A stretch of 53,027 nt of DNA. Origin: Elusimicrobiales bacterium (GTDB taxonomy: Bacteria; Elusimicrobiota; Elusimicrobia; Elusimicrobiales; UBA9959). Below are positions 17,467 to 40,495 of the stretch, piece by piece. Positions within the stretch are counted from its first letter, which is position 1, and the number at the start of each line of letters is the position of its first letter. The stretch covers positions 3,736 through 56,762 of the forward strand of contig JAVHPG010000019.1 of assembly GCA_036170455.1 (NCBI GenBank), read 5' to 3'. A program made the translations under genes and the position numbers. Below the pieces are notes generated by a model. It did not search any database. It was not told where the DNA came from and saw only the letters and a list, made by a program, of their open reading frames with translations.

Positions 17467-17737
17467 AAGATATATGAGCTCCAGTGTCTGTCAGTTGCCG
17501 GTGCGAGGTCTTAAGGCCAGGGCGGCGTAATATCAGTTGAATAATACAATCATAAAATATAAATATGAGCCATGGCAAGTGCGATCCCCAAATCCGATGC
17601 ATAGATATAGTAATGCCTTAATTCAGAAGCTTGAAAAGCGGCGCTCAAAATTTATTATAATGTACAGCGAAGCGCTATTATGGCCGCTATGGCCGTCCGC
17701 GCAGGCTGGCGCAAGCACTATACGGGGAGGCAGTAAA

Positions 17738-20700
17738 ATGAACCGCATTATTTTTTCTCTTATATTTTTCGCATTGGCGTCCGTTTCATACGCTTATGAA
17801 ACTATCGATTTCAGGGGCATCATCCAGAACGCCGCGATGCAAAGGCCGACGGCGATCGCCGTAGCGGCCGGCAAGGTCTTCGTGACCGACTCCAAAGCCA
17901 ACGCGGTTTTTGTCTTTGACTCGGAAGGGAAGCTGCTAAAAAAGATAGAAGGCGGGCTCAAGTCGCCCGAGGCCGTAAGTTTCGGCGGCGGCAAGCTTTA
18001 CGTGGCCGACACCGACAATTCCCGCGTGGTAGTCTTTGACCCCGAGGGCAAGATGCTTTGGGCTTTTTCCAGCGAGGGCAGCGACCCCGGCCAGATCAAA
18101 TCTCCCGAGGGCATCGCTTACGGCCCCGACGCCAGGGTGTATGTTTCGAACACGGGCGGCTCCAGGATAGAGGTCTTTAACGCGGACGGCATCTATCTTT
18201 ACGGCTTCCCCGTGGCCACCGCGGCCGGGATCAAAATCAAGCCCGTAAAAATAGCGCTCAGCCCCTCCGGCGACATCCTGGTTTCCGATCCTGATAAGGC
18301 GGTGCTTCTGCGCTACGACAGGACCGGGAAACTCCTGAAAGAATTCCAGCTGGCCAACAACGGCGGCGCCTTCAACAAGTACGGTTATATCTACGTCATT
18401 AATTCAAAAGACGGCAAGGTGATGGAAATCTCCGAAGCGGGCGTGGCGGTGGGAACTTTCGGGACCAGGGGCAAGGGGAAGAGCGAGTTCAAGAACCTGC
18501 GCGATATAGCCATGGACAAGACCGGAATGATCTATCTCTGCGACGAGGAGAACAGGAAGGTTGTTTACCTTATGGTGGAAACGCCCTATTCCGGGCCCCG
18601 CCTTCCGGAGGCCGCCATCCTCGACCGCTTTACTTTAAAAGGACCCACGGCCAATTTGAAGTTCAAGGCCGAAGTTTTCGCCCTGACCAATGACGGCAAG
18701 ATCGTCGCCTGGCTGCCGGAATCCAGGGAAATAGCCCTTATCGACGGAACCGCCAGGAAGACGCTTGTAAAGGAAGGCAAGCTGCAGGGCCAGGTCCGTT
18801 CCCCTAAGAGCATTTTCATCGGCCCCAAGGGCGAGATGTATGTGGCCGATTCGGGCAATGACAGGGTTCAGATATTTAAAGCGGACTGGACCTACGACAA
18901 TATGTTCGGAGAGAGCGGTTCCGGCGAGGGGCAGTTCAGGAACCCTTCCGCCGTCGCAGTTAATTCAAGCGGCAATATCTACGTGGCCGACACCAGGAAC
19001 AAGAAACTGAAGGCGTTCAGCTCCGACGGCATGTTCCTTTTTGCCGTAGGGCCGGAGTTCGGCGGCATCACGCTCGCCAGCCCTGTCTCGGCGGTCTGCG
19101 ACGAGAACAAGAACGTATATATACTTGATTCGGTGCTCAAGAAGGTCATAGTCACCGACTCCATGGGCAAATTCCTTCGCGCCTGGGACGATTCCGGCAA
19201 CCTGCAGGACCCCGCTTCCCTGGTTTACGACGGGAAAGGCTTTTTCTATATACTGGACAGGGGAACCTATAACGTAAAGATCTTCGACAAAAACGGTATT
19301 TTTACCTCCAGTTTCTTCGCGAAGGGCCGCGGCGAGCGCGAGCTGTGGGATCCGCAGGACCTGGCCTTCAGGAACGACAAGATATACGTCTCCGACAGGG
19401 AGAACGCGCGCATTTTAGCGTTCGATATCAGCTACCTCCCCGAAGAACCCACCGGGGTGACGGCCAAGGCCGAAGAGAAGACCGTGAAACTGACCTGGAA
19501 GGCCAAGTCGAACGCCTGGACAAGGGGGTTCAAGGTCTTCCGCGCGGCGGGTTCCGGCGGCGACCTCGAAGAGGCCGGCTCGGCCAAGGAGATGTCCTTC
19601 GAGGACTCCGCGCTGGTCCCGGGCACCACTTATTACTACTATACGGCGGCGCTTTCAGTGAGCGGCATACAGGGCGGCCTTTCGCAGCCGGCGGAGGTTT
19701 ACTTCAAAGGTCCCGAGGCCCCCGTCCCTGCCCCGGCGGCAGCGCCCGCGGCGGAGGCTTCGGCGAACAAGAACGTCGCCCCGATGGAGATCCTGCCGTC
19801 GGCGTCTCTCAATTACATCTTCTCGGCCAACTATAAATATTACCAGAAGAACCCGGTCGGCAAGATCACGATCAAGAACAATACGGAGAACGATTTCACC
19901 AACGTAAAGCTCTCTTTCTTCTTCAAAGACTTCATGGACTTCCCGAGCGACACCATCGTAGAGGCGGTCAAGGCGGGGGAACAGACCGAAGTGCCCTTGG
20001 CCGCCACGCTTAACAACAGGATCCTCAATATCAACGAGGATACGCCCATCCAGTGCCAGCTCACGCTGACCTACTACATGGACGGGGCCGAGAAGACCGT
20101 CACCCTGAACAAACCCGTGAAGGTGCTTTCCAAGAACGCCATAGTCTGGGATAATTCCGCCAGGCTGGCCAACTTCATAACCATCAAAGACACGCCTATC
20201 ATGGCCTTCAGGGCTTTCGCCCTGGGCGAGAAGAAGAAGTTCGAAGGCGAAGCCGACCTGCTCGACGACAGCATCCTGACCGCGCTGATGGCGTGGGAGG
20301 CCCTGGGCGAGTACGGTATATCTTACCTGGCCGACCCGGCCAATCCTTATTCGGTGCTTAAATCCACCGAGAACCTGGTGCTGGACACCGTGCAGTTCCC
20401 GCGCAATACCCTGCAGCTCAAGAGCGGCGACTGCGACGACCTGACCGCGCTGTTCGCCAGCATTTTCGAGGCCTCCGGCCTGCACGTGGCGCTGCTCGAC
20501 TTCCCCGGCCACATCGCCCTGATGTTCGACACCGGCGAGACCGACGCGAACGCGGTGGGCCTGCCCGAGGACTACCTGATAAAATACAACAATACCTGGT
20601 GGGTGGGCGTAGAGACCACCATGGTTGGCAAGAGCTTCCAGGACTCGATACTGCACGTGGCCGACCTTTACAGGAAGATGGACAAGGACGTGAAGGTCAT

Positions 20701-21217
20701 AGACGTGCGGGCTTCCTGGAACGAATTCGAACCGGTCACTCTGCCCGAGACCCAGGCGGACACCTACGCTTCGGCGGCGCTGCCGGACCGCGTCAAGGGT
20801 GCTATCGAATCCCTTATGGCCGCCCGCTACGATTACCTGAAGAAATACTACGGCCGCATATTGCAGGAAATGCCGGAGGATATCGATACGAACCTCAGCC
20901 TGGGCATAGTGCACGCCGAGTATAAAGCCTATGACGCCGCGGCAGGCTGCTTCCAGAAGGTGCTCGACAAGGAACCGTTCAACTCCGGAGCGCTCAATAA
21001 TATGGGCAATCTGAGCTTCACGGGAGGCAAGTACGACGAGGCCAGGGATTATTATTTCAAAGCCTCCAAGGCCGATCCGTACGACGGCAATATCTGGCTC
21101 AACCTCGCCAGGGTTTCCGGGAAGCTGGGCAAAAAAGACGACGTGAAGACCTTCGCGGAGCGGGCGGCGAAAATAGAGCCCGAGCTCAAGAGCATCGGAG
21201 ATAAATTATCCAGGTGA
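17738..21217 (+). CDS. Secreted NHL-repeat / FN3 / transglutaminase-like / TPR protein
   Basis: GGGGAGG SD before ATG 17738 and a signal peptide. NHL repeats (LYVADTDNSRV, GQFRNPSAVAV), FN3 (LVPGTTYYYY), SGDCDDL...PGHIAL and C-terminal TPRs. Confidence 0.85.
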   Translation: MNRIIFSLIFFALASVSYAYETIDFRGIIQNAAMQRPTAIAVAAGKVFVTDSKANAVFVFDSEGKLLKKIEGGLKSPEAVSFGGGKLYVADTDNSRVVVFDPEGKMLWAFSSEGSDPGQIKSPEGIAYGPDARVYVSNTGGSRIEVFNADGIYLYGFPVATAAGIKIKPVKIALSPSGDILVSDPDKAVLLRYDRTGKLLKEFQLANNGGAFNKYGYIYVINSKDGKVMEISEAGVAVGTFGTRGKGKSEFKNLRDIAMDKTGMIYLCDEENRKVVYLMVETPYSGPRLPEAAILDRFTLKGPTANLKFKAEVFALTNDGKIVAWLPESREIALIDGTARKTLVKEGKLQGQVRSPKSIFIGPKGEMYVADSGNDRVQIFKADWTYDNMFGESGSGEGQFRNPSAVAVNSSGNIYVADTRNKKLKAFSSDGMFLFAVGPEFGGITLASPVSAVCDENKNVYILDSVLKKVIVTDSMGKFLRAWDDSGNLQDPASLVYDGKGFFYILDRGTYNVKIFDKNGIFTSSFFAKGRGERELWDPQDLAFRNDKIYVSDRENARILAFDISYLPEEPTGVTAKAEEKTVKLTWKAKSNAWTRGFKVFRAAGSGGDLEEAGSAKEMSFEDSALVPGTTYYYYTAALSVSGIQGGLSQPAEVYFKGPEAPVPAPAAAPAAEASANKNVAPMEILPSASLNYIFSANYKYYQKNPVGKITIKNNTENDFTNVKLSFFFKDFMDFPSDTIVEAVKAGEQTEVPLAATLNNRILNINEDTPIQCQLTLTYYMDGAEKTVTLNKPVKVLSKNAIVWDNSARLANFITIKDTPIMAFRAFALGEKKKFEGEADLLDDSILTALMAWEALGEYGISYLADPANPYSVLKSTENLVLDTVQFPRNTLQLKSGDCDDLTALFASIFEASGLHVALLDFPGHIALMFDTGETDANAVGLPEDYLIKYNNTWWVGVETTMVGKSFQDSILHVADLYRKMDKDVKVIDVRASWNEFEPVTLPETQADTYASAALPDRVKGAIESLMAARYDYLKKYYGRILQEMPEDIDTNLSLGIVHAEYKAYDAAAGCFQKVLDKEPFNSGALNNMGNLSFTGGKYDEARDYYFKASKADPYDGNIWLNLARVSGKLGKKDDVKTFAERAAKIEPELKSIGDKLSR

Positions 21218-21242
21218 GGAAATAGAACGGGAGGGTATTCTT

Positions 21243-21731
21243 ATGAAAAAAGCATTAATAGCGCTGGCGCTGATCTTCGCGGTGGGCGTGGTCCACGCGG
21301 AAAGCGGCAAGGACTGGAAGGGCTGGTACGGCAATATGCTCAAAGGCCTTAAGACCAAGATCAGCAAGAAACTCGAGTCCAAGACCCGCGTGAGCGCGGT
21401 CGCGGCCGTGCGCGGCGCGAAGCAGGGCGAGGACGCGAACGCCCTTTACTGGAAAGGCGGCGTCTCCGAGAAGGCCCAGAAGAAACTGGCCGACGAGAAG
21501 AAGCAGCTGACCGACGCCGTGGAGCTGGTGGTCGGAGGGGACGTGGAGGGCGGACGCGCGGCCCTGAAAAAGTTCATGAAGGACAACCCGGAGAGCTTCT
21601 TCGCGCAGGACGCGAAAGAGGCCCTGGATAACCTGCCGGCCGCCGAAGTCAAGCCCGAGGAGGGTAAGACGGAAGCTCCGGCCGAGGAGCCCGCCGCCGA
21701 GGAAAAGCCCGCCGCTAAAACCGGGAAATAG
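21243..21731 (+). CDS. Secreted helical hypothetical protein
   Basis: GGGAGG SD, signal peptide, an AVAAVRGA motif, a TPR-like helix pair and an Ala/Glu/Pro tail. Confidence 0.8.
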   Translation: MKKALIALALIFAVGVVHAESGKDWKGWYGNMLKGLKTKISKKLESKTRVSAVAAVRGAKQGEDANALYWKGGVSEKAQKKLADEKKQLTDAVELVVGGDVEGGRAALKKFMKDNPESFFAQDAKEALDNLPAAEVKPEEGKTEAPAEEPAAEEKPAAKTGK

Positions 21732-21742
21732 TTCCCGTTTCC

Positions 21743-21782
21743 GGCAATAAAAAACCCCGCTCCGGCGGGGTTTTTTATTGCC
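21743..21782. terminator. Bidirectional intrinsic terminator
   Basis: GGCAATAAAAAACCCCGC-TCCG-GCGGGGTTTTTTATTGCC. Confidence 0.85.
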
Positions 21783-21793
21783 TTCGATAATGC

Positions 21794-22729
21794 TCAATCG
21801 TCCAGCGGCTCGTCCCGGGCGGGGGCGGCTTTGGCTGGCTCCAGCGGGCCGGCGCCTGCCGGGGCGGCTGGAGGCTGCTGTACTGCCGGGGGCTGTTGCG
21901 GGGTTGTGGGAACCACCCAGGTCTGGTCGGGTTTCTCGGGGACGAGGGCGGGTTCGGAAGACAAGGGCGTTCCTTCCAATACCTGGCCTTCGGGGAGCCA
22001 GGTCCTGTCCGGCTGCACCGGCGGGCCGGACATGGCCGGCGTTTCCCTTTCCGGCTGCGCGGCTTTAGGCGGGAGGTCGCGCGGGGCCGCCCCCGCCGCT
22101 TTCAGCTTCGCGTAAACGTCGGTGGCGGAGCGCCAGAGCATCTGCCTCAGCAGGCCGCTCTCGCGGGCCCCCGGCGAGAAGAAGGGATAGAGCGGCGCCA
22201 TCAGGAGGTGGAAAGTCGTTTTGTGGCGCGCCTCGGTCTCGACGCGCAGGGTGCCGGTAGAAACGGCGAAGTCGGCGGTGAGATAATAGTTGACCCGCAG
22301 GGAAGAGGGAATAAGGAAGATAAAGCTGGTGTCCACCAGGTAGGAGCGGAAAAGGTCGCCGTAAGTCCAGCGCCCGAAGCTGGTGAGCTCCAGGCGCAGG
22401 GTCCCGCGGCCGCGCGCTTTGTCGTAAAGGCCGGCCTCCGAGAACACTCCCCTTGCTTTCCGGCCCAGGGCGGCGGCGTCGGCCGGCTCGACCGGCAGCG
22501 GCTTTATCTTTTTGGGCCTGGTAGAGCCCTCTCCGATGGAGTCGGTCGGGGCGCGGTAAGGGAAATTCTGCCAGTAAACCTGTATTTCAGAGAACGGGAC
22601 GATCTCTTTGTCTTCAAGCATGGCCCGCGCCGTGGAACGCTCTACGCGGATATCGCCGGAATTGAAAGAGGCGCAGCCGAAGAAAGCCGGGAGGGCCGCC
22701 AGGAGCAAAAGGAGTTTGATCGTTTTCAT
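21794..22729 (-). CDS. Hypothetical lipoprotein with Pro-rich C-terminus
   Basis: Lipobox AFFG-C; Pro/Gln/Ala-rich tail. Confidence 0.75.
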   Translation of the reverse strand: MKTIKLLLLLAALPAFFGCASFNSGDIRVERSTARAMLEDKEIVPFSEIQVYWQNFPYRAPTDSIGEGSTRPKKIKPLPVEPADAAALGRKARGVFSEAGLYDKARGRGTLRLELTSFGRWTYGDLFRSYLVDTSFIFLIPSSLRVNYYLTADFAVSTGTLRVETEARHKTTFHLLMAPLYPFFSPGARESGLLRQMLWRSATDVYAKLKAAGAAPRDLPPKAAQPERETPAMSGPPVQPDRTWLPEGQVLEGTPLSSEPALVPEKPDQTWVVPTTPQQPPAVQQPPAAPAGAGPLEPAKAAPARDEPLDD

Positions 22730-22831
22730 GTATAGTTAGGGAACGGCTTCTGATATCTGTCATTCGGAAAAGCCGTATCATTTTATATACTATATTATAC
22801 CGTTGTATTCATCAAGGGTTCAGGGGAGCAT

Positions 22832-24028
22832 ATGGCGCTTAAAAAAATAGAGAGGATCATAAAGACCGAGGGCAAGCCGGATATTATAATCAGGCTGGCC
22901 AGGGTGCATGACATGCGCCGCATCCAGATGCTTTACGCCGAGATCTACGGCGGCAGCTATTCCGTGCCGATCGTCACCGACAAAGAAAAGATGCGCCACG
23001 CCATAGAGGATAACGACTACTACTGGCTGGTGGCCGAATGCCAGGACCGCGTGGTGGGCAGCCTCGTCTACGCGCTGGACCTGACCTACAGGAACTCGAA
23101 AGCTTTCGGCGCGGTGGTCAGCCAGGAATTCAGGAAGCACAATCTGGCCTTCATGATGATGAAGCTGGTCCTCGACGACATTACCACCAGCAAAGACCTG
23201 GTGGACCTGGTCTACGCCACCACCCGCACCGCTAACCACGCCCCGCAGAAACTGACCGAGAGCCTGGGTTTCATAAAGCTGGGCATCTTCCCGAACACCC
23301 ACAAAGTTCAGGACAACGAGACGCATTGCCTTACCGCCTACCTTACCGAAAGGGCGCTGCAGCGCCGCCGCCGGAAGCCCCGCATCATCCCCGAAGTGGC
23401 GCCCTTCTATGATATCGTACGCAAGCAGATCGCCCTGGAGAGGCCGCAGATAAAGAACGTGAAAGGGGAGTACAGCGACCATACGCAGAAGATCCCGCTG
23501 CTAAATTTTGAGGCCATCACCGCCCCCGAGTTTATCAAGCACCGGTACAAAAAGATCAAGCAGACCAGCTTCTTCGCGCATACGGTGATGCCTTTCCACG
23601 ACCCCAACCTCCTGCTGATCACCCCGGACCAGGGGACCGAGGTCTACATGACCTATAACGCCAAGGACAAGTACAGCGTGGTGGTCGCCGGCATGACCAA
23701 TGAGAAAAGCTTCGCGGTGGTGCTTGAAAGCATAGCCCGCAAGGTCAGCGAACTGGGCATGGCCTACGTCGAGGTCATCATAGACGCCTACTCCCCGGCC
23801 ATCCAGCGCGACGCGCTGGACGCGCGCTTCATCCCCAGCGCCTATTTCCCCTGCGCCAAGCGGATGGGCGGCAAGCGCTACGACTGCGTGATCTTCTCCC
23901 GCACCTTCGAGGTCCTGGACTTCCGCAACGTCAAGATCATCTCGCTCTACAAGAACTTCCTGCGCGAATACCTCAAGCTCTGGCGCGAGAACTACATCGA
24001 GCTGGTCTTCAAGACCGACCAGAAATAG
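22832..24028 (+). CDS. GNAT-family N-acyltransferase (N-terminal GNAT plus a second, probably GNAT-like domain)
   Basis: IRLARVHD, WLVAECQDRVVG, AVVSQEFRKHNLA and QKLTESLGF; GGGGAG SD. Confidence 0.75.
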   Translation: MALKKIERIIKTEGKPDIIIRLARVHDMRRIQMLYAEIYGGSYSVPIVTDKEKMRHAIEDNDYYWLVAECQDRVVGSLVYALDLTYRNSKAFGAVVSQEFRKHNLAFMMMKLVLDDITTSKDLVDLVYATTRTANHAPQKLTESLGFIKLGIFPNTHKVQDNETHCLTAYLTERALQRRRRKPRIIPEVAPFYDIVRKQIALERPQIKNVKGEYSDHTQKIPLLNFEAITAPEFIKHRYKKIKQTSFFAHTVMPFHDPNLLLITPDQGTEVYMTYNAKDKYSVVVAGMTNEKSFAVVLESIARKVSELGMAYVEVIIDAYSPAIQRDALDARFIPSAYFPCAKRMGGKRYDCVIFSRTFEVLDFRNVKIISLYKNFLREYLKLWRENYIELVFKTDQK

Positions 24029-24076
24029 GACGGGACAATATAGTTTTAAATTGCCGCCGTTATAAGGAGACAAGCC

Positions 24077-25246
24077 GTGGCCGATCTTTCTGTCGAAGAC
24101 AAACTTCCGCCTTTTTACAAGCCGCTTAAGAGCCGGGCGGCCGTGGATGTTTTTTTTGAAACCCCGGCTTTCGAGTATTCGCCGCGCACCTCTAAGGCTT
24201 TCTGCGCCGCTATGCGCGCCGCGCTGGCTTTCCAGGGCGGGCGCGCCCCGGTGCTGAAAGCGATTTACAAGGCCGAAGGCTTCTCTCCCGCCTCGGTGAG
24301 AACGGAGCGGGATATAGCGAATATCCCTTTTATCTTCGTCGCCGCGCTTAAAGAGCGGGACCTGACCACCCTTCCGTATTCCAAAATAGTGCTAGAGCTC
24401 AAATCCAGCGGAACCTCCGGCCAGCGCAGCCGGATGCAGCTGGACAAAGGTTCGCTGATGCGGGTGCGCCGCATGGCCTGGCAGGTTTTCGCCGGGCTTG
24501 GGCTGACCGACCTGGAGCGCGCCCACGACTATATCTGCTTCACTTACGATCCCGAGGTGGCCAAAGACCTGGGGACGGCCTGGACGGACAAGCTGCTCAG
24601 CGGCTTCACTAAGAAAGGGGAGATCTTTTACACCTTCCGCTGGAGCAAAGAGAAGAAAGACTTTTATTTCGACATAGACGGCGCGGTGCTGGCCATGAAG
24701 AAATTCGAAGACGCCGGCTCGCTGGTGCGTTTGGTCGGCTTTCCTGCTTTCGCTTTGAAACTCACCGAAGAATTCAAGAAGCGCTACGGCCGCTACCCGA
24801 AACTTAACCCGGAGTCCAGCGTAGTTACCGGCGGCGGCTGGAAGACCCTGGCCGATGAGGCGATGGATAAAAAAGTTTACCGCCGGATATTAGCCGACAA
24901 TCTGGGCGTGCCGGTGGAGAACGTAAGGGACCTGTTCGGCATGGTAGAGCACGGCGTGCCTTACGTGGACTGCCGGCTCGGGAACTTCCATGTCCCGAAT
25001 TACGGCCGCATCATAGCGCGCCACCCGGGCACGCTGGAGCCGCTGGGGTATAACAAGGTCGGCCTGCTGCAGTTCATTACGCCTTACCTCACCAGCTATC
25101 CTTCGCTTTCCGTGCTCTCCTCTGATTTCGGCCTGCTGCGCCCGAAGTGCGCCTGCGGCCTGCCCGGCCCTGTGCTTGAAATAAAAGGCCGCGCCGGAGT
25201 GACTAAATTAAAGGGCTGCGCTATTTCCGCGGCGACGATGCTATGA
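24077..25246 (+). CDS. luxE: LuxE-like acyl-protein synthetase
   Basis: KSSGTSGQRS loop, TGGGWK, VRDLFGMVEHG and C-terminal GRAGVTKLKGCA with the conserved Cys; AAGGAG SD and GTG start. Confidence 0.85.
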   Translation: MADLSVEDKLPPFYKPLKSRAAVDVFFETPAFEYSPRTSKAFCAAMRAALAFQGGRAPVLKAIYKAEGFSPASVRTERDIANIPFIFVAALKERDLTTLPYSKIVLELKSSGTSGQRSRMQLDKGSLMRVRRMAWQVFAGLGLTDLERAHDYICFTYDPEVAKDLGTAWTDKLLSGFTKKGEIFYTFRWSKEKKDFYFDIDGAVLAMKKFEDAGSLVRLVGFPAFALKLTEEFKKRYGRYPKLNPESSVVTGGGWKTLADEAMDKKVYRRILADNLGVPVENVRDLFGMVEHGVPYVDCRLGNFHVPNYGRIIARHPGTLEPLGYNKVGLLQFITPYLTSYPSLSVLSSDFGLLRPKCACGLPGPVLEIKGRAGVTKLKGCAISAATML

Positions 25247-27885
25247 AGATACACAACACTTATTTATTCGGGAAAGTCCTGGACAAAACCGCCTGGACGC
25301 CGGACGAGCTGGAAAAGATAGGCCTGCGGGCGCAGGCGGCCCGCGAAGCTATGCGCGGCGCTTCCCGCGAGTATATTATCGGGACCCTGGTGAAAGCGGG
25401 GAAGCTGTTCGAGAAGGGCGGAAAGTACCGCAAGGCCGCCCTGGCGCATCTTAAAGAACACATAACCTTTTCCGAGCCGGTCATAGACAAAAGCCTGGAC
25501 GTGATACCGGAACTCCTGGATAAGCAGGGGATGAACAAGCGGATGAGCATGGAGCTCTTCCTCCCTTACGCGCTTGAAACCACCGTGGAGCGCCGCGGTT
25601 ACTCCGGGCTGATAAGGGCGATGCCGAAGGGCGTGGTCCTGCATGTGGGCGCGGGGAACGTTTTCCTCGGCATCCTGGACTCCCTGGTGATAGGCTTCCT
25701 GACGAAGAACGTGAATATAGTCAAGCTTTCCTCTTCGGGCTCAAACTTCATCAATATTTTCATGGACGCGCTGAAAGAGGTGGACGAGGAAGGGATACTT
25801 TCAAAGTCCGCCGCGATCATCAGCTGGAAAGGCGGCAGCCAGGGCCTGGAAGAGGCCGCGCTGAAGAACGTGAACGCCGTTTTCGTCTGGGGCGGGTACG
25901 AAGCGGTGCAGTCCTACCGCAAAATAGCCCCGATAGACGTGAGGGTGGAGGGCTTCGGCCCGAAGACCAGCGTGGGCGTGGTCTTTGAAAGCTGCGTCGA
26001 GAACGAGGGCATGGACGCCGTCGCGCTGCGCGCCGCCACGGACGCCTCGCTGTGGGACCAGGCCGCCTGCTCCTCGCTGCATACGCTTTACTTTATAGCG
26101 CCCGCTAAAAGGCATAAAGCCCTGGCGGCGGATTTCCTGAAGGCGGCAAAAAAACACTTCTCCCGGCTTGCTAAAGACCTGCCGCCCGGGAAGCTCTCCC
26201 CCGACGAGATGGTGGAGATAAATAAAGCCCGCCAGCTCGCCCGCGTGGACTCCGCTCTTGGCAACGCTTCTTACGAGAGCTCCGCTCCGGAGACCGATTG
26301 GACGGTGATCTACGAGAAGGACCCAGTCTACCGCGTCTCGCCGCTTAACCGCGTGCTTTACGTGAAGACCGTGGAGAGCATCGAGGAAGTAAGGGACCGG
26401 CTGCTGCCGATGCGCGGCTATATCCAGACCGTCGGAGTGGGTGGCTCCATAGAGCGCAAGAAAGTGATGGAAGTCCTGGGACCGGCCGGCATAGCCCGCA
26501 TAGTGAGGCTGGGCAAGATGCTCGAGGAGTCCAACGGCTCGCCGCACGACGGGATCTTCCCGATGATGTCGCTGGTGAACTGGCTGCCGATCGAGGAGAA
26601 ACCGACGCCGTTGGACCGCCTGAGCGAGCTGGTGGACCACGCCAGGAGCCGCAGCGCTTTCTACGGCCGGCATTTCAAAGGCGTGCCGAAGATAACCAGC
26701 ATGGAGGATTTCGCCAAGGTTCCCTTCCTCGAGAAGAACCATGTGCTGGACAATACCCCGCCGGACAGCTCCGACCTGCTTACCTCCCGGGTGCAGCGCG
26801 GCATTTATTTCGCCAGCGGCGGCTCCACGGGCCAGCCCAAGTATATTTTTTACGACCAGAAAGAGTACGACCATACCTGCCGTATGCTCGCTTTCACCAT
26901 GGAGGCGGCTGGCCTGGGCGAAAAGGATACGATAGCGAACCTGTTCATCGCCGGGAATCTGTGGTCCAGCTGGCTCTCCGTGGAAAAAGCCATCTCCTAC
27001 ACCAAGGCCATCTCGGTGCCCGTCGGCAGCAATCTCCCGCTGGAGAATATAGTGGGCTACCTGGAGGACTTCAGCGTGACCGCCGTGATAGGCCTGCCCT
27101 CTTTCCTGGTGAAGCTGGCGGAATACGTGAAGTCGAACCCGAAGAAGCACAGGCTCCGCGTCAACAAGATCTTTTACGGCGGCGAGTACGTGGGCGAAGA
27201 GATGGTCAAGTTCTTCAAAAGCGTCTTTCCCGGAGTGGACGTGCGCTCGGCCGGCTACGCCACCGCCGACGCCGGCGTCGTGGGCTTCCAGTGCCCGGTC
27301 TGCGTTAAAGGGCAGCACCATATTTTCTCTTCCAGCCAGTTCATAGAGTTCGTGGACCAGGACACTATGGCCCCGGTGAAAGAGGGGGCGGTCGGCGAGC
27401 TGGTGGTGACCTGCCTTTCGAAAAAGAGCATGCCTATCATCCGCTACCGGGTGGGGGACCTCGGGCGCTGGATCATGAAGCCCTGCGCCTGCGGCAGGAA
27501 GGAGCATTTGTTCGAGATCCTGGGCCGCTGCGACGACCGCATCCATGTCGGGGGGGCGCACCTGTTCGTGAACGACATCCAGAACGCGCTGGGCAAAGTG
27601 CCGGAGCTCAGCTTTAATTTCCAGGCCGTGATAGACAAAAAAGGCCATAGGGACACGCTGAAAGTACGCGTCGAGGTGAAGGCCGCGGCTTCGCTGCCGC
27701 GCTCCGCCGCGCTGGCGAATTTGCTCTGGCTGCAGATCCAGAGCCATTGCGAAGACCTGCACGAGAGCGTGCGCCTGAAATGGCTGGACGCCCCCGTCAT
27801 AGAGGTCCTGAAGCCGAACACTATAGAGCGCATCCAGCGCACCGGCAAGATCCGCAAGGTCATAGACAAAAGGGTCAAGGGCTGA
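25243..27885 (+). CDS. luxC: Fusion of LuxC-like acyl-CoA reductase and phenylacetate-CoA ligase (PaaK)-like adenylation domain
   Basis: N-terminal part: PKGVVLHVGAGNV, VKLSS, WGGYEAV, FGPKTS, WDQAACSS and PHDG. C-terminal part: FASGGSTGQPK, YGGE, GYATAD, RYRVGDLG, GRCDD and RTGKIRKVIDKR. ATGA overlap with luxE. Confidence 0.85.
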   Translation: MKIHNTYLFGKVLDKTAWTPDELEKIGLRAQAAREAMRGASREYIIGTLVKAGKLFEKGGKYRKAALAHLKEHITFSEPVIDKSLDVIPELLDKQGMNKRMSMELFLPYALETTVERRGYSGLIRAMPKGVVLHVGAGNVFLGILDSLVIGFLTKNVNIVKLSSSGSNFINIFMDALKEVDEEGILSKSAAIISWKGGSQGLEEAALKNVNAVFVWGGYEAVQSYRKIAPIDVRVEGFGPKTSVGVVFESCVENEGMDAVALRAATDASLWDQAACSSLHTLYFIAPAKRHKALAADFLKAAKKHFSRLAKDLPPGKLSPDEMVEINKARQLARVDSALGNASYESSAPETDWTVIYEKDPVYRVSPLNRVLYVKTVESIEEVRDRLLPMRGYIQTVGVGGSIERKKVMEVLGPAGIARIVRLGKMLEESNGSPHDGIFPMMSLVNWLPIEEKPTPLDRLSELVDHARSRSAFYGRHFKGVPKITSMEDFAKVPFLEKNHVLDNTPPDSSDLLTSRVQRGIYFASGGSTGQPKYIFYDQKEYDHTCRMLAFTMEAAGLGEKDTIANLFIAGNLWSSWLSVEKAISYTKAISVPVGSNLPLENIVGYLEDFSVTAVIGLPSFLVKLAEYVKSNPKKHRLRVNKIFYGGEYVGEEMVKFFKSVFPGVDVRSAGYATADAGVVGFQCPVCVKGQHHIFSSSQFIEFVDQDTMAPVKEGAVGELVVTCLSKKSMPIIRYRVGDLGRWIMKPCACGRKEHLFEILGRCDDRIHVGGAHLFVNDIQNALGKVPELSFNFQAVIDKKGHRDTLKVRVEVKAAASLPRSAALANLLWLQIQSHCEDLHESVRLKWLDAPVIEVLKPNTIERIQRTGKIRKVIDKRVKG

Positions 27886-32600: not shown

Positions 32601-32670
32601 AGCTATATTCTAGCAATCTGCGGGGGGTAATAATAGAAAGCCCGGAGACAATTTGATACTATTGCCTATC

Positions 32671-34140
32671 ATGAAAAAGAATTTCAAAATTAAGATCCTG
32701 GGCGCGCTGCTCCTGTTCTGCGCGGCTTTCGCCGCCGGCGTCTATTTTACCCTGCCGGTCAACCGGGTGAACATGCGCTCGGGGCTGGTAATGCTGGGAG
32801 ACCTGAACTCGGACAATAAGTGGGACGGGCAGGATGGCGCGCTGCTGGAAGGCCTTATCTCCGACCCTTTTTCCGCGTCTCCCGAAACGGCCTATAAAGC
32901 CGACGTGAACCACGACGGCCTGCTGGACGAGGAAGATATCTCCTTCCTTAAAGCTCTCTATGCCGGCGGCGACCCGTACAAGGTCAGGGAGGAATTCCTG
33001 CGGGCAGGAAAAACCTTCCCCTATCCGCGCGAGTTTTTCAGGTACGTGCCGGAAAGCGAATATCTGCAGCGCCCCGTCCTGGCCCTCCGTCACAAGGCGG
33101 AGGAAGCTTCGCCGCTGAAGTTCCTGTCCCAGGTCCGCGCCCGGGCGGCCGCCGGCTACGCGGGCCGGCTGCGGCATGAGATCTACAGCGAAGGGATCCG
33201 GTTTTCCCTGGCTTACGCGAGAAGGAAGGCCGGCCTCGCGCCCAAAGAGGCTGTTTACTCGAGGGGGAAAATAGACCGCTGCGCCGCTTTATGGGCCGCC
33301 GGGAAAGAATACGGGCTACTCCTTGAGCTCATGGGCCTTACGGAGGACGCCGAGACCCTTACTATGGCCGGGCAGCCGGTCTTTGTCGGCAAGGTCCTGT
33401 ATTTCAGGGAGCATTTGAAAGCCCTGCTTGAATCGGCGGACTACGGGCAATACCTCGCCGGGAAAATTCCGGCCGAAGACATCCTGCGCCTGATGCAGCG
33501 GTACGCCAGGGAGGACCTGGGTATAGAGGTCGACCTCGTCAACCTGCCGCCCGCGCGCAACTTCCTTGACCTGAATAATTACGTGCAGCGCGCAAAGTGG
33601 CAGTATTATAAATCCTCGGCGACGCGCCGCGACTTCCGGAAATTCCTTCTTTTCGCGCAGTACGACCGGCGCTACCTGAGGGCGGCGGCGAAGACCAACC
33701 GCAAGCTCGAAGACCTCCCGCTGGAAAATCATAATCTGCCCATGGTGCTTCTGTTCCGCGAGGCCCTGGCAATAAAGGGCGGCGATAAACTGGCCGCGGT
33801 GGGGATGATAGACGAGGCTGTGCGGATCCCCTTCGCCTGGGTCAAGTCTATCCCCCGGGAGAAGCTTCCCACTTCGGTAGCGCTCGAGAATTTCCTGCTG
33901 CCCGGAAACAAAGAAGACGGCTCGGACAAGAGCCGCCACTGGAACGTGTTCGGAGGGCTGAGCCTTTACAAGTCGCCCGAAGAATCGCTGCGCCTCGCGC
34001 TGGCGCGCGAGGTGGACGACTTCCGCAAAGAGGGCCGCAGCGCGCAGTCCATGCGGGAATTCATCCGCGACGCCATGGCGGATATCAACGGGATCTATTA
34101 CGTGATAAGCATGGACCCGGGGCTGCTGAAGCGGAATTGA
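32671..34140 (+). CDS. Membrane-anchored or secreted protein with dockerin-like Ca-binding pair
   Basis: N-terminal hydrophobic helix; GDLNSDNKWDGQD and ADVNHDGLLDEED; large helical remainder with DKSRH. Confidence 0.7.
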   Translation: MKKNFKIKILGALLLFCAAFAAGVYFTLPVNRVNMRSGLVMLGDLNSDNKWDGQDGALLEGLISDPFSASPETAYKADVNHDGLLDEEDISFLKALYAGGDPYKVREEFLRAGKTFPYPREFFRYVPESEYLQRPVLALRHKAEEASPLKFLSQVRARAAAGYAGRLRHEIYSEGIRFSLAYARRKAGLAPKEAVYSRGKIDRCAALWAAGKEYGLLLELMGLTEDAETLTMAGQPVFVGKVLYFREHLKALLESADYGQYLAGKIPAEDILRLMQRYAREDLGIEVDLVNLPPARNFLDLNNYVQRAKWQYYKSSATRRDFRKFLLFAQYDRRYLRAAAKTNRKLEDLPLENHNLPMVLLFREALAIKGGDKLAAVGMIDEAVRIPFAWVKSIPREKLPTSVALENFLLPGNKEDGSDKSRHWNVFGGLSLYKSPEESLRLALAREVDDFRKEGRSAQSMREFIRDAMADINGIYYVISMDPGLLKRN

Positions 34141-35658: not shown

Positions 35659-36864
35659 ATGAGCGTGCTTTCTAAAATCCAGCTTGAAAAATACGCGGAT
35701 ACCCTTATCTGGGGGCTTACCACCGCCCGCCGCAACGCTTTCGAAAAATACGACAATATCCTGCTGCGCTGCGACCTGGAGGCCCGCGAACTGGGCGAGA
35801 TAGTTTACCGCAAGCTGGTGCAGCGCAAGTTCAACGTCACCTTCAATTTCCTGTCCAGCCCCGCGCTCGAGCGGAGCTTCTATGAATTCTCCGACGACAA
35901 GCAGCGCGCCTTCCTCCCCTCCTGGGACAAGGAGCTCTATAATAACCTCAACGGCTATGTGTTCATCCACGCCCCCGCTTCGCTGACCCACCTGAAGGGG
36001 ATAGACACCAAACGGCAGTCCCAGGTGGCCATCGCCCGCAAGCCGCTGTTCAGGATCCGCGACGAGCGCGAAGAAAAAGGCAAGTTCTCCTGGACCCTCT
36101 GTACCTACCCCACAGAAGAGCTGGCGAAGCAGGCCAAGCTCTCCGTAAAGGAATACGCCGCCCAGATAGCCAAAGCCTGCTACCTTAACGAACCGAACCC
36201 GGCTAAAAAATGGGGCCAGATCTATAAAGACACTATGCAGATAAAGAAGTGGATCAGCGGTCTCGGTATAGACACCATCCGCACCGAGTCCAAGTCCATG
36301 GACTTCGAAATAAAGCTGGGGGAGCAGCGCAAGTTCCTCGGCGTCAGCGGCCACAATATCCCCAGCTTCGAGATCTTCACCTCGCCCGACTGGCGCGGAA
36401 CCCGCGGCCGCTACTTCGCCAACCTCCCCGCTTTCCGCGGCGGCAATTACGTCGAAGAGATCAGCCTCGAATTCAAGGAAGGCCGCGCCGTGAAGATCTC
36501 CGCCAAAAAAGGCGGAGAGTATGTTAAAAAGATCATGGCCACCGACAAAGGCGCCTCCCAGCTCGGCGAGTACTCCCTCACCGACCGCCGCTTCTCCCGC
36601 ATCGACAAGTTCATGGCCGACACCCTGTTCGACGAGAACCACGGCGGCAAGCACGGCAACTGCCACGTCGCCATCGGCAACTCCTATACCGACACCTACA
36701 CCGGCAATGTCGCCAGGCTCGATAAAGCGAAAAAAACCGCCCTCGGCTACAACGACTCCGCCGTGCACTGGGACCTGATCAACACCGAAGACAAAAAAGT
36801 CACCGCCACCCTCAAGACCGGTAAAAAAGTCACGATCTACGAGAAAGGCCAGTTTAAATACTAA
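35659..36864 (+). CDS. Aminopeptidase, peptidase family M29 (AmpS/PepS-like)
   Basis: HNIPSFEIFTSP, LGEYSL, TLFDENHGG, HVAIGNSY and NDSAVHWD. Confidence 0.9.
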   Translation: MSVLSKIQLEKYADTLIWGLTTARRNAFEKYDNILLRCDLEARELGEIVYRKLVQRKFNVTFNFLSSPALERSFYEFSDDKQRAFLPSWDKELYNNLNGYVFIHAPASLTHLKGIDTKRQSQVAIARKPLFRIRDEREEKGKFSWTLCTYPTEELAKQAKLSVKEYAAQIAKACYLNEPNPAKKWGQIYKDTMQIKKWISGLGIDTIRTESKSMDFEIKLGEQRKFLGVSGHNIPSFEIFTSPDWRGTRGRYFANLPAFRGGNYVEEISLEFKEGRAVKISAKKGGEYVKKIMATDKGASQLGEYSLTDRRFSRIDKFMADTLFDENHGGKHGNCHVAIGNSYTDTYTGNVARLDKAKKTALGYNDSAVHWDLINTEDKKVTATLKTGKKVTIYEKGQFKY

Positions 36865-36943
36865 GTCTTACCGTTAGATGTCGAGCGGCTGTTGAGCGGC
36901 TTTTGATTTGTGGCATTCAGCGGTATTTGGGATAATACCTACT

Positions 36944-38206
36944 ATGCCTACACTCCTTGCCGCGCTCAAAACCGAAAGAGGCCGACATGTCGCCGGGGCC
37001 GTTTTCCTGGCCGGCATCTCCGCCATGTTCCTCTTCTGCGGCTACGAGTTCATCCGCTCGCCCGCCGAGTCCATCTTCATAGACCAGTTCGGAGCCGCCA
37101 GGAAACCCTACGCGATAGCCTGCGTCCCTTTCATGATGGCCGCCATGATCTACGGCTACGCCCGCCTGCTCTCCGCCGTCGGCGCAAAAAAAGCCATGGC
37201 CGTCTCCATGCTCTCCAGCGCCGCCTTCTTCCTGCTCGCCTGGTTCCTGCTCGGCCGCGCCGGGAAGTGGCTGGCTTTCCTCCTCCTGGTCTTCAAAGAA
37301 TCCTACGTCGTGATAATTTCCGAGCAGTATTGGTCTTTCGTAAACAGCGTCCTCAAGGACGAAGAAGGCAAGATCTTCAACGGCCCCGTCGCCGGCCTCG
37401 GCGCGCTCGGCTCGCTCATCGGCGGCTGGCTGCTGGGCCATTTCGCCGTAGGCCTCGGCACCGATAAATTCGTCCTCTTCGCAGCCCTGATAATAATTCC
37501 CGCCGCCGCTTTCTTCTGGGCCGGCTATAATAACGCCGGCGAGCCCAAGCCTTCGGCGGACGAGGCGGGGGGGAGAAAAGGCCACCTGCACCTGAGCATA
37601 CTTAAAGAGAACCGCACCGTCCTCTTCATAGCTTTCATAATCTTCTCCGCGCAGGTCGTGGCCACCACGCTGGATTTCCGCTGGACCCAGCTGGTGCAGG
37701 ATTTCATCCCGCTCAAGGACGAGCGCACCGCCTATTTCGGGCGCTTCTGGATGAACGTTAACATCTTCTCCTTCTCGATGCAGTTCCTGCTCACCCCTCT
37801 CCTGATGCGCTATATCCCGCGGCGCGGCATACTGGCCACTATACCGGCAGTTCATGTAGTCACCTGCCTGCTGCTGCTCCTGTATCCCTCGCTCGGAGTG
37901 GCCACCACGGCCTTGTTGCTTTTCAAGGGCATGGATTATTCGATTTTCCGCGCGGCCAAGGAAACGCTCTACATCCCGTTCTCCTACGACACCCGCTACC
38001 GCGCCAAGCAGATAGCCGACGCCTTCACCTACCGCTTCGCCAAGGGCCTCACCGCCACCGGCGTGTCCGCCCTTAAAGCCATGGGCTCAATCGCTCCCGG
38101 TTTCTACCCCGCCCTGGGCGCGATTTTCTCCGCCGCCTGGCTTGCCATGTCCTTCCCGCTCACGGCAAAACGCGCGGACGCGGCGCCCGTGAACACGAAA
38201 GCATGA
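36944..38206 (+). CDS. NTT (Npt1/Npt2, TLC-like) nucleotide transporter family MFS protein
   Basis: About 12 TM helices. YEFIRSPAESIF, EQYWSFVNSV, YSIFRAAKETLYIP and YRAKQIADAFTYRFAK are typical of the NTT/AAA family. Confidence 0.75.
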   Translation: MPTLLAALKTERGRHVAGAVFLAGISAMFLFCGYEFIRSPAESIFIDQFGAARKPYAIACVPFMMAAMIYGYARLLSAVGAKKAMAVSMLSSAAFFLLAWFLLGRAGKWLAFLLLVFKESYVVIISEQYWSFVNSVLKDEEGKIFNGPVAGLGALGSLIGGWLLGHFAVGLGTDKFVLFAALIIIPAAAFFWAGYNNAGEPKPSADEAGGRKGHLHLSILKENRTVLFIAFIIFSAQVVATTLDFRWTQLVQDFIPLKDERTAYFGRFWMNVNIFSFSMQFLLTPLLMRYIPRRGILATIPAVHVVTCLLLLLYPSLGVATTALLLFKGMDYSIFRAAKETLYIPFSYDTRYRAKQIADAFTYRFAKGLTATGVSALKAMGSIAPGFYPALGAIFSAAWLAMSFPLTAKRADAAPVNTKA

Positions 38207-38247
38207 CGCCGGCCTGAAATATTTTTAAGTAGGGGAACTGGATGAAA

Positions 38248-38282
38248 CGGGCCGCCTCAAGAGAGAGGCGGCCCGCTTTTTT
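38248..38282. terminator. Intrinsic terminator between convergent genes
   Basis: CGGGCCGCCTC-loop-GAGGCGGCCCG plus a T-run. Confidence 0.75.
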
Positions 38283-39456
38283 ATTTAAGCCCGTTCCAGT
38301 CCAGGGCGGTTATCCTGCGCAGGGCTTCCTTCAGCTTGGCTTCCGGTTCGGTGAGCGAGAACCGTATGTAGCCCTCCCCGAATTTGCCGAAGCCGGAGCC
38401 GGGCGCGGTGAGCACCGCGGCTTTTTCAAGCATGAAAAGGACGGCGTCGAGCGAGGCGCACTTTACGGGCGGCCTGGCCCAGATGAAGCAACTGCCGCCG
38501 GGCCTGGAGAACTTCCAGCCGCTTTCGGTCAGGGCAGCGCAAAAGGAGTCCGCTCTTTTTCTGAACACTTCCCTGATAGGCGGAACTATCGTCTCGTGGT
38601 GCTTAAGCGCGAAAGCGACGGCGTTCTGCACCGCGTTAAAGGGGCCGGAATCGATGTTCTCCTTGAGCTGGTTAAGAGCGCAGACAAGCTTGGAGTTGCC
38701 GACCACCCAACCGATGCGCCAGCCGGCCATGCAGTAGGTCTTGGAGGCGGAATAAAATTCCACGGCCAGGTCCCTGGCTCCCGGAACCTCCAGGAGGCTG
38801 GGCGCGGGCTTGCCGAAATAGATATCGCAGTAAGCCGCGTCCTGCGCTATGATGATCCCGTTCTTCCTTGCCCACTTCACCAGGTCCTTGTAGAAATAGA
38901 GCGAGGCTCCCGCGCCGGTGGGGTTATTGGGGTAATTAAGGAAGAATAGCTTGGTTTTGGCGACCACTTTCTGCGGAATTTTTCCCAGGTCCGGCAGGAA
39001 GGCGTTCTTTTCCTCGAGCGGGACGCCATGGATGCGCCCGCCGGAAAGCAGCACGCCGGTCCGGTAGGTGGGATAGGTCGGGTCCGGGATAAGGCAGTGA
39101 TCGCCCGGGTTCATCACCACGAAGGGCAGGTGCGCTATGCCTTCCTTCGAGCCGATAAGTATCGAAACCTCGTCGTTATAATGAAAATCCAGGCCGTGCC
39201 TTCTTTTGTGCCAGGCGGAGATCTCGCGCCGCAGGTTCTCGTTTCCCTTCGTGTTCGGATACCTGTGGTTCAGGCCCTTGCGCACTTCGCTCACGGCGCA
39301 GTCCACGATGCCGCGCGCGGTGGGGATGTCGGGGTCGCCCACGGCCAGGCTGATGATGTCCCTGCCCTTCGCCCGCTCGGCGCGCTCCTTGCGGTAAAGT
39401 TCCTCGAACAGGAAGGGCTTGAATAATTTAAGTTTTTTGCTGAGTTCTATTTTCAT
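38281..39456 (-). CDS. PLP-dependent aminotransferase class I/II (DapL/AlaC-like)
   Basis: SLAVGDPD, IGSKEGIAH, LNYPNNPTG, QDAAY, SASKTYCMAGWRIG and GEGYIRFSL. Confidence 0.9.
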   Translation of the reverse strand: MKIELSKKLKLFKPFLFEELYRKERAERAKGRDIISLAVGDPDIPTARGIVDCAVSEVRKGLNHRYPNTKGNENLRREISAWHKRRHGLDFHYNDEVSILIGSKEGIAHLPFVVMNPGDHCLIPDPTYPTYRTGVLLSGGRIHGVPLEEKNAFLPDLGKIPQKVVAKTKLFFLNYPNNPTGAGASLYFYKDLVKWARKNGIIIAQDAAYCDIYFGKPAPSLLEVPGARDLAVEFYSASKTYCMAGWRIGWVVGNSKLVCALNQLKENIDSGPFNAVQNAVAFALKHHETIVPPIREVFRKRADSFCAALTESGWKFSRPGGSCFIWARPPVKCASLDAVLFMLEKAAVLTAPGSGFGKFGEGYIRFSLTEPEAKLKEALRRITALDWNGLK

Positions 39457-39497
39457 AAATCGTAGCGGAGCGACGCAGGTCCCGGCGGCGCCGTAAG

Positions 39498-40484: not shown

Positions 40485-40495
40485 AAATCCAGCTT

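Follow-up and report, generated by a model that had tools for sequence, protein, structure and literature searches.

A stretch of 53,027 nucleotides (nt) from an uncultured groundwater Elusimicrobia bacterium (the window; contig JAVHPG010000019.1 of assembly GCA_036170455.1) carries three co-oriented genes that encode a GNAT acyltransferase, a LuxE-like acyl-protein synthetase and a fusion of a LuxC domain to a PaaK-like adenylate-forming domain. What do these enzymes make in a bacterium whose genome (2.98 Mb on 387 contigs, 95.6% complete) contains single LuxC and LuxE genes and no match to luciferase (PF00296) or LuxD (PF02273), luxG not having been searched for? Our analysis favors, with a probability of roughly 0.55, a route that resembles leupeptin synthesis, is independent of nonribosomal peptide synthetases (NRPS) and would yield a short amino aldehyde or dipeptide aldehyde with an N-acyl cap. 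The first-pass annotation of this DNA had found no luxA, luxB, luxD or luxG in the window and had proposed a function unrelated to light emission. The genome-wide searches extend the former observation, and together with the leupeptin-type homology described below, they support the latter proposal.

Three linked genes and their catalytic residues

All three genes lie on the forward strand. The GNAT gene (P0001, 22832-24028, with its TAG stop codon at 24026-24028) encodes 398 amino acids (aa), the LuxE-like gene (P0002, 24077-25246) starts with GTG and encodes 389 aa, and the fusion gene (P0003, 25243-27885) encodes 880 aa. The 48-nt gap between the GNAT gene and the GTG contains a Shine-Dalgarno-like AAGGAG (24064-24069, forward strand) 7 nt 5′ of this start codon, and the LuxE-like and fusion genes share an ATGA overlap at 25243-25246. 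Thus, the three genes are translationally linked. Gene order, gap and overlap agree with the coordinates in the first-pass annotation, and every LuxE, LuxC and PaaK-like motif it named is present at the residues given here.

Residues 1-455 of the fusion (25243-26607, forward strand) form a LuxC-type thioester reductase domain, as judged by Pfam (LuxC, PF05893, residues 44-447, E 6e-67), by a DQAAC motif at residue 272 and by alignment to Photobacterium LuxC (7xc6_A, E 4e-24), which places the catalytic Cys276 (codon 26068-26070) on the cysteine of DQQAC. Residues 456-880 (26608-27885, forward strand) form the PaaK-like adenylate-forming domain, with Pfam matches to AMP-binding (525-722) and AMP-binding_C_2 (771-877) and with the motifs SGGSTG (525), VGDLGR (737, the GD being 738-739), GRCDD (761) and GKIRK (868), the last of which contains a catalytic-type Lys869. 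In an alignment of 12 fusions, D272, Q273, A275 and C276 were invariant in the first domain and S525-G530, G738, D739, G761, R762, D764, D765, G868 and K869 in the second. The LuxC domain scored below the NCBIfam LuxC equivalog cut-off (124.7 versus 750 bits). For residues 458-877, the nearest NCBIfam models were PaaK-type ligases, with scores of 145-151 bits that are below the PaaK and coenzyme A (CoA)-ligase equivalog cut-offs of 646-700. The closest solved relatives of this domain were phenylacetate-CoA ligases (PaaK 4r1l, E 6e-35; 2y4o and 2y27), and it also matched 2-hydroxyisobutyryl-CoA synthetase (6hdw).

The LuxE-like protein matched Pfam LuxE (PF04443, E 3e-33) and contains a P-loop (SSGTSG, residues 110-115), a GGGWK motif with Lys256, Arg372 and a KGCA motif at residue 379, in which the swinging-arm Cys381 lies within TKLKGCAIS. 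Alignment to Photobacterium LuxE (7xc6_E, E 6e-18, 68 bits) placed Cys381 on the KGC cysteine, such that Cys381, Arg372 and Lys256 correspond to Cys364, Arg355 and the GGGWK lysine of LuxE. Roles for this arginine, this lysine and the C-terminal arm come from the LuxC-LuxE cryo-electron microscopy study (PMC9157457). As with LuxC, the protein fell below the NCBIfam LuxE equivalog cut-off (85.1 versus 550 bits). Domains for acid activation, reduction and acyl transfer, which had led to the earlier proposal of a compact non-NRPS system, are thus all present with their catalytic residues intact.

The first gene product had been described simply as a GNAT. This assignment itself holds, since the product of the first gene matched Pfam GNAT (PF00583, residues 38-147, E 2e-6), and Pfam, structure comparison and hhalign define an N-terminal domain at residues 11-185 (22862-23386, forward strand). 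However, a second GNAT-fold domain had been missed; fold comparison placed it in the C-terminal half, at residues ~224-363 (23501-23920, forward strand), where there is no Pfam match. An AlphaFold2 model of the full-length protein (15 homologues) had a predicted local distance difference test (pLDDT) score of 85.9, and both halves are kept in 15 aligned homologues with identities down to 43%. The N-terminal domain resembled N-alpha-acetyltransferases and other GNATs (VIA-align Z 12.0-12.7, root-mean-square deviation 2.0-2.5 Å over 143-148 residues) and is probably the catalytic acyl-CoA-dependent N-acyltransferase. The C-terminal half was also folded alone (pLDDT 77.2) and, with no Foldseek pre-filter, compared with 48,161 solved chains; by title, each of the 50 matches listed was a member of the GNAT superfamily (Z 8.1-11.2). 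Judged by fold only, the first gene encodes a predicted tandem GNAT. As comparison of the sequence profiles of the two halves gave no significant similarity (probability 2%), the repeat would be ancient. By eye, the C-terminal domain contains no Q/RxxGxG/A-like acetyl-CoA loop motif, which suggests that it may be non-catalytic. An ESM Atlas look-up with this half returned clusters of ~400-aa GNAT proteins from several phyla (scores 0.84-0.85), which serve as leads only.

Relationship to the leupeptin operon

Leupeptin, a protease inhibitor, is acetyl-Leu-Leu-argininal. In older enzymological work on Streptomyces, its synthesis reportedly involved an acetyltransferase, an ATP-dependent leupeptin acid synthetase and an ATP- and NADPH-dependent reductase, the logic of which matches that considered here. 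The leupeptin operon of Klebsiella michiganensis/oxytoca consists of an MFS transporter gene and leupABCD and also occurs in Photorhabdus and Xenorhabdus, according to three reports (PMC8283571, PMC11480411, bioRxiv 10.64898/2026.08.25.747093). In the last of these (bioRxiv 10.64898/2026.08.25.747093), the K. oxytoca locus encodes an MFS transporter, a LuxE/PaaK-family protein, an acyl-CoA reductase, a PaaK-family ligase and a GNAT.

PMC8283571 gives locus tags for leupABCD together with two primers, leupA_f and leupB_r. Read on the opposite strand, leupB_r encodes EQLKDH, a peptide found at residue 47 of an 801-aa Klebsiella protein with LuxC and AMP-binding domains (P0343). EQLKDH was present in 66 of 416 collected proteins, and the 60 matches listed were all within P0310-P0373, which are labeled Klebsiella or are close relatives. 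This primer peptide identifies LeupB as a LuxC::PaaK fusion of the type encoded in the window. The 801-aa Klebsiella "acyl-CoA reductase" is abundant in K. michiganensis and is 66% identical to a fusion encoded on a Salmonella plasmid, a locus in which neither leupA_f nor leupB_r was found with up to 3 mismatches.

Comparison of the window proteins with these relatives revealed homology across the cassette. The fusion is colinear with Klebsiella P0343 from end to end (26% identity, E 3e-59) and matched the Salmonella fusion with E 8e-61, the LuxE-like protein is 35% identical to the Salmonella leup-like acyl-protein synthase (E 8e-60), and the N-terminal GNAT domain matched the Salmonella leup-like GNAT with an hhalign probability of 90%. 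The tandem GNAT was also 27% identical over 379 aa to a GNAT from Kitasatospora (E 5e-42). The Salmonella cassette (plasmid CP054717) encodes an acyl-protein synthase, the fusion (802 aa), a PaaK-family ligase and a GNAT, and the Kitasatospora cassette (plasmid NZ_CP108248) encodes an AMP-binding protein, an MFS transporter, a GNAT (378 aa), an acyl-protein synthase and a fusion. The latter resembles the window both in having the tandem type of GNAT and in the order GNAT-LuxE-fusion.

Like leupABCD, the window cassette joins a LuxE-like synthetase, a LuxC::PaaK fusion and a GNAT in one operon that has neither an NRPS nor a carrier protein. Since the characterized leupABCD operon already holds a matching enzyme set, including the fusion, this is not the new type of pathway for which the locus had been considered a candidate. 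Instead, it is a distinct and shorter leup-type variant, with three genes, a tandem GNAT, no extra ligase or exporter and a fusion from a separate clade. The GNAT gene is first in the window but last in the leup operon, the Salmonella leup-like GNAT is shorter (294 aa versus 398 aa), and within one family the window cassette resembles part of the core genome, in contrast to leup, which Klebsiella carries as an accessory island.

The clades were defined in a quick IQ-TREE tree of 33 fusions, which was midpoint-rooted for drawing only and for which a careful search is unfinished. There were two major clades. One unites the proteobacterial LeupB-like proteins with those of Kitasatospora and of the second cassettes in some Elusimicrobia genomes, and all 5 of its members with readable context have an extra ligase. 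The other contains the Elusimicrobia triad clade, the triad of another Elusimicrobia family, Armatimonadota, Kapabacteria and Clostridium ihumii. Fusions from Klebsiella, Salmonella, Erwinia, Pseudomonas and Chromobacterium formed a single clade with a Shimodaira-Hasegawa-like approximate likelihood ratio test (SH-aLRT) value of 100, and the Elusimicrobia triad clade, also with an SH-aLRT value of 100, was on the opposite side.

Distribution of the cassette and its longer forms

The LuxC::PaaK fusion is the signature enzyme of a large family. A HMMER search of 1.84 billion cluster representatives recovered 489 proteins with E <= 1e-30; of the 150 best, 132 had the two-domain layout, LuxC then PaaK. 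Members with an organism name belong to Armatimonadota, Kapabacteria and Clostridium ihumii, and plasmid-borne ones to Streptomycetaceae and Salmonella enterica, such that the family spans Elusimicrobiota, Armatimonadota, Kapabacteria, Clostridium, Streptomycetaceae and Enterobacterales. Relatives with 52-96% identity to the window fusion make up at least 120 clusters at 90% identity; the organism-named clusters among them are all from Elusimicrobia, except for one labeled "bacterium". As 132 of these 150 proteins share the layout and close relatives fill at least 120 clusters, the fusion is real rather than the assembly artifact that the first-pass annotation had allowed for.

That annotation had also asked if the GNAT is conserved together with luxE and luxC. 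We compared 79 loci from a genome collection by tblastn, all labeled Elusimicrobia or "bacterium", and found the order GNAT-LuxE-fusion in 73 of them. Of the six misses, four are cut by contig edges (L011, L041, L063 and L067), one (L028) has other open reading frames (ORFs) upstream of the fusion, and one (L052), apparently a second partial copy in one assembly, has LuxE without a GNAT. Across an even sample of the phylum, the fusion was present in 67 of 401 genomes. These include 44 of 47 genomes of the window's own family. For two other families the counts were 12 of 47 and 4 of 10, and for the sister family within the order 4 of 118; the two large genera of this sister family, with genomes of 1.2-1.7 Mb, had none (0/107).

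A metagenome scan with an alignment of the triad-side fusion clade yielded 80 loci. In 31 of these, classed as close to the window by a LuxC-domain identity of at least 48%, we found 29 plain triads, one locus cut by a contig edge and one (L134) with the same order in which GNAT and LuxE overlap. The remaining 49 loci are distant, and 16 have too little upstream sequence. Among the 33 that could be evaluated, 22 are plain GNAT-LuxE-fusion triads, on contigs with guanine-plus-cytosine (GC) contents of 34-67%, 8 have an extra PaaK ligase (5 of these also with an MFS transporter) and 3 have other layouts. Since most of the evaluable distant loci (22/33) are triads, the three-gene form has a wide distribution and is no peculiarity of Elusimicrobia. 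With its tandem GNAT, it is the commonest layout among the relatives of the window.

Longer cassettes with an extra PaaK ligase, one of them also with an MFS transporter, were present in genomes of the same family and the same class, suggesting that leup-like cassettes are a modular family. One same-family genome (L083, G086:C20:72000-87000) carries the triad and a second, longer cassette, with the order unknown protein (339 aa), PaaK-like ligase, unknown protein (517 aa), LuxE-like protein, fusion, MFS transporter and tandem GNAT. Each of the Kitasatospora, Salmonella and second Elusimicrobia cassettes has at least one extra stand-alone PaaK-like ligase, while an MFS transporter was present only in Kitasatospora and L083. 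Five other genomes of the family encode a second fusion with 31-35% identity.

Some members depart from the usual gene boundaries. At L085:7969-11373, the LuxE-like and fusion frames are one 1134-aa ORF, a possible triple fusion. Other fusions are extended, P0183 (1276 aa) by ~430 N-terminal residues and P0127 (1244 aa) by ~370 C-terminal residues, and the first 390 residues of a 1274-aa ORF at L028:1306-5130 have no match to LuxE or in Pfam. In some loci, the triad is interrupted by genes for a DNA methylase, a phosphonate-binding protein or an AAA ATPase. In one subclade, a DUF1007 gene and a NicO-type nickel/cobalt transporter gene lie between the LuxE and fusion genes (Pfam matches in L053 and L065), and L050 and L055 have an ORF pair at the matching position that we assign from ORF sizes. 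The inserted genes gave no clue to function.

A candidate aldehyde pathway and its alternatives

We propose the following order of steps. Using acyl-CoA, the N-terminal GNAT domain would cap a first amino acid by acylating, probably acetylating, its amino group. The PaaK-like domain would adenylate a carboxylate and form one amide bond to a second amino acid. The LuxE-like enzyme would then adenylate the terminal carboxylate of this product and load it as a thioester on its own Cys381, from which the flexible arm could deliver the acyl moiety to the LuxC domain at Cys276. Reduction of this thioester by NAD(P)H would release the aldehyde. We expect the latter to be a small dipeptide aldehyde with an N-acyl cap or, if the ligase acts otherwise, an N-acyl amino aldehyde, a product type put forward in the first-pass annotation that we keep as the best guess. 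Our reading of the leup operon is that each peptide bond may use one PaaK-type unit; as the window has one ligase fewer, its product would be one residue (one ligation) shorter than leupeptin.

Several points weigh against this reading. The window cassette lacks both the separate PaaK-family ligase (LeupC-type) and the adjacent MFS exporter of leupABCD. When the whole fusion was used in tblastn searches for a second PaaK ligase, the best match, the only one considered per locus, was the fusion itself in 79 of 79 loci, and a Pfam scan of the ten neighboring ORFs (14.8-34.1 kb) revealed no MFS match. By BLASTP, the GNAT does not significantly match the leup-like GNAT (E 0.09), and the profile match between them covers the N-terminal domain only. 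The window fusion falls in the major clade that does not contain LeupB in the quick midpoint-rooted tree. Moreover, the window proteins are only 26-35% identical to the leup proteins, and thus their substrates may differ completely. Finally, a cassette that is near-universal and syntenic in one family (44/47) and has no exporter would be unusual for an accessory secreted inhibitor.

Could the same parts do without a peptide bond? The PaaK-like domain could instead make the acyl-CoA or acyl-adenylate used by the GNAT, with LuxE and LuxC reducing the resulting N-acyl amino acid. This scheme accounts for all parts with a single ligase, GNATs use acyl-CoA donors, and the closest solved relatives of the PaaK-like domain (4r1l, 2y4o, 2y27 and 6hdw) are true CoA ligases. 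However, the domain missed the NCBIfam PaaK and CoA-ligase equivalog cut-offs, all of them widely, and in the leup operon, the fusion serves a tripeptide-aldehyde pathway that has one further PaaK-family ligase. We therefore consider this scheme unlikely; by analogy with leup, the PaaK-like domain is more likely to be an amide-forming ligase than to make acyl-CoA for the GNAT. We give less credence to a fatty acid reductase of the lux type, which would supply fatty aldehydes or alcohols for a wax, an ether lipid or an envelope lipid; a second acyl group would then be handled by the PaaK-like domain and the GNAT. Biochemically defined homologues of the reductase pair are limited to LuxC and LuxE, whose catalytic residues are all kept: the TxxKGC arm, arginine and GGGWK lysine of Photobacterium phosphoreum LuxE and the DQxAC cysteine of LuxC (7xc6) all have counterparts here. 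Unlike the lux system, however, the window genome has no LuxA, LuxB or LuxD (PF02273) match, and its LuxC is fused to an adenylating domain. Both proteins are far below the LuxC and LuxE equivalog cut-offs, their nearest characterized relatives are the leup enzymes, and the ten neighboring ORFs include no acyl carrier protein (ACP) or lipid gene by Pfam. The substrate is probably not a fatty acid.

Two further functions appear more improbable. One is decoration of a surface glycan or the envelope, in which the cassette would provide an unusual acyl substituent for a sugar or a lipoprotein. In its favor, a study of polar-flagellin glycosylation islands in Aeromonas (PMC7874193) describes luciferase-less luxC and luxE homologues next to an AMP-dependent synthetase gene, and lipoprotein and secreted-protein genes are syntenic upstream of the triad (58/79 and 43/79 loci). 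However, the Aeromonas islands contain ACP, 3-oxoacyl-ACP reductase and glycosyltransferase genes, and their LuxC is not reported as a fusion (PMC7874193), whereas the ten-ORF Pfam scan found no glycosyltransferase, sugar-nucleotide, ACP or ketoreductase gene adjoining the triad, nor were there such genes among the scanned inserts in the loci of relatives. The upstream synteny also fades in distant loci and may reflect shared descent. There is only a slim chance that decoration is the function. LuxC/LuxE-like proteins among the Vibrio cholerae O1 tetronate genes were considered as a further parallel, but the publications consulted do not mention them, and we dropped this lead. Slimmer still is that of an amino acid bypass, in which the GNAT would act like ArgA and LuxE/LuxC like ArgB/ArgC (or ProB/ProA), giving N-acetylglutamate semialdehyde for ornithine, arginine or proline. 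The chemistry of capping, activation and reduction is formally identical, and the window genome gave no match above cut-off to ArgC, ArgB or ProA, while ornithine carbamoyltransferase, ArgG and an ArgD-like aminotransferase (387 bits, below cut-off) are present. However, ArgC is present in 0 of 47 genomes of the same family and in 3 of 118 of the sister family, though only 4 of these 118 have the fusion, and in other families ArgC does occur in genomes with the fusion (G355, G315, G342, G399, G178 and others). In addition, only 13 of the 51 family genomes had ArgG above cut-off, none had ArgJ (0/51), and the PaaK-like domain would be left without a role. We rejected the arginine/proline bypass as unlikely, ArgC being missing across the order regardless of the cassette.

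If the cassette provides a leupeptin-type route to a short aldehyde, as we favor, what might the aldehyde do? As the cassette is near-universal and syntenic in one free-living family and has no exporter, its product could serve in housekeeping or signaling rather than as a secreted inhibitor. A tentative, and in our view doubtful, version is that the three-gene form is inherited vertically, as a housekeeping module, in free-living Elusimicrobia and many other lineages, with an aldehyde that acts in the cell or periplasm, either to regulate the cell's own proteases or as a signal. If so, leup-type chemistry would serve a new physiological purpose. To our knowledge, NRPS-free leupeptin-type peptide-aldehyde synthesis has so far been studied in only a few Gammaproteobacteria. 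The compact three-gene form offers a handy expression target for new small aldehyde protease inhibitors or signals and could show whether product length is set by the number of PaaK-type ligases. For such genes, annotation as "acyl-CoA reductase" or bioluminescence proteins is misleading.

The operon promoter is probably in the divergent intergenic region (22730-22831, as read from the sequence) between the GNAT gene and the lipoprotein gene on the reverse strand; a consensus scan of its forward strand found no sigma-70-like site. GGGGAG is immediately 5′ of the GNAT ATG at 22832. Upstream, the window encodes a 1226-aa NHL-repeat/TPR protein, a 162-aa secreted protein and a 311-aa proline-rich lipoprotein (lipobox FFGC) at 17537-22729. 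The latter two have no Pfam match. The lipoprotein gene is syntenic in 58 of the 79 loci and the small secreted protein and NHL/TPR genes are each syntenic in 43 of 79. None of the three has an evident functional link to the triad.

The genome has only one other PaaK-like gene, which encodes a 496-aa AMP-binding protein on contig C237 (L088:1330-2820, reverse strand). It is located between genes for a methylmalonyl-CoA-mutase-like protein and a 3-hydroxyacyl-CoA dehydrogenase, a context reminiscent of 2-hydroxyisobutyryl-CoA ligase/mutase clusters. With regard to arginine metabolism, ArgD-like and ArgE-like matches in this genome are below cut-off. In all 51 family genomes examined (this one and 50 others), neither ArgC nor ArgJ was above cut-off (0/51 each), whereas ornithine carbamoyltransferase was above cut-off in 46 and ArgG in 13, which looks like arginine auxotrophy with a catabolic route of the arginine-deiminase type. 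Elsewhere in the window, GC skew changes from -0.15 (36-38 kb) to +0.22 (42-44 kb) within 36000-44000, around a 1214-aa ORF on the reverse strand (40496-44140). Dockerin type I domains are unusual outside cellulosome-forming bacteria, and a 495-aa ORF at 32653-34140 contains one (E 8e-5).

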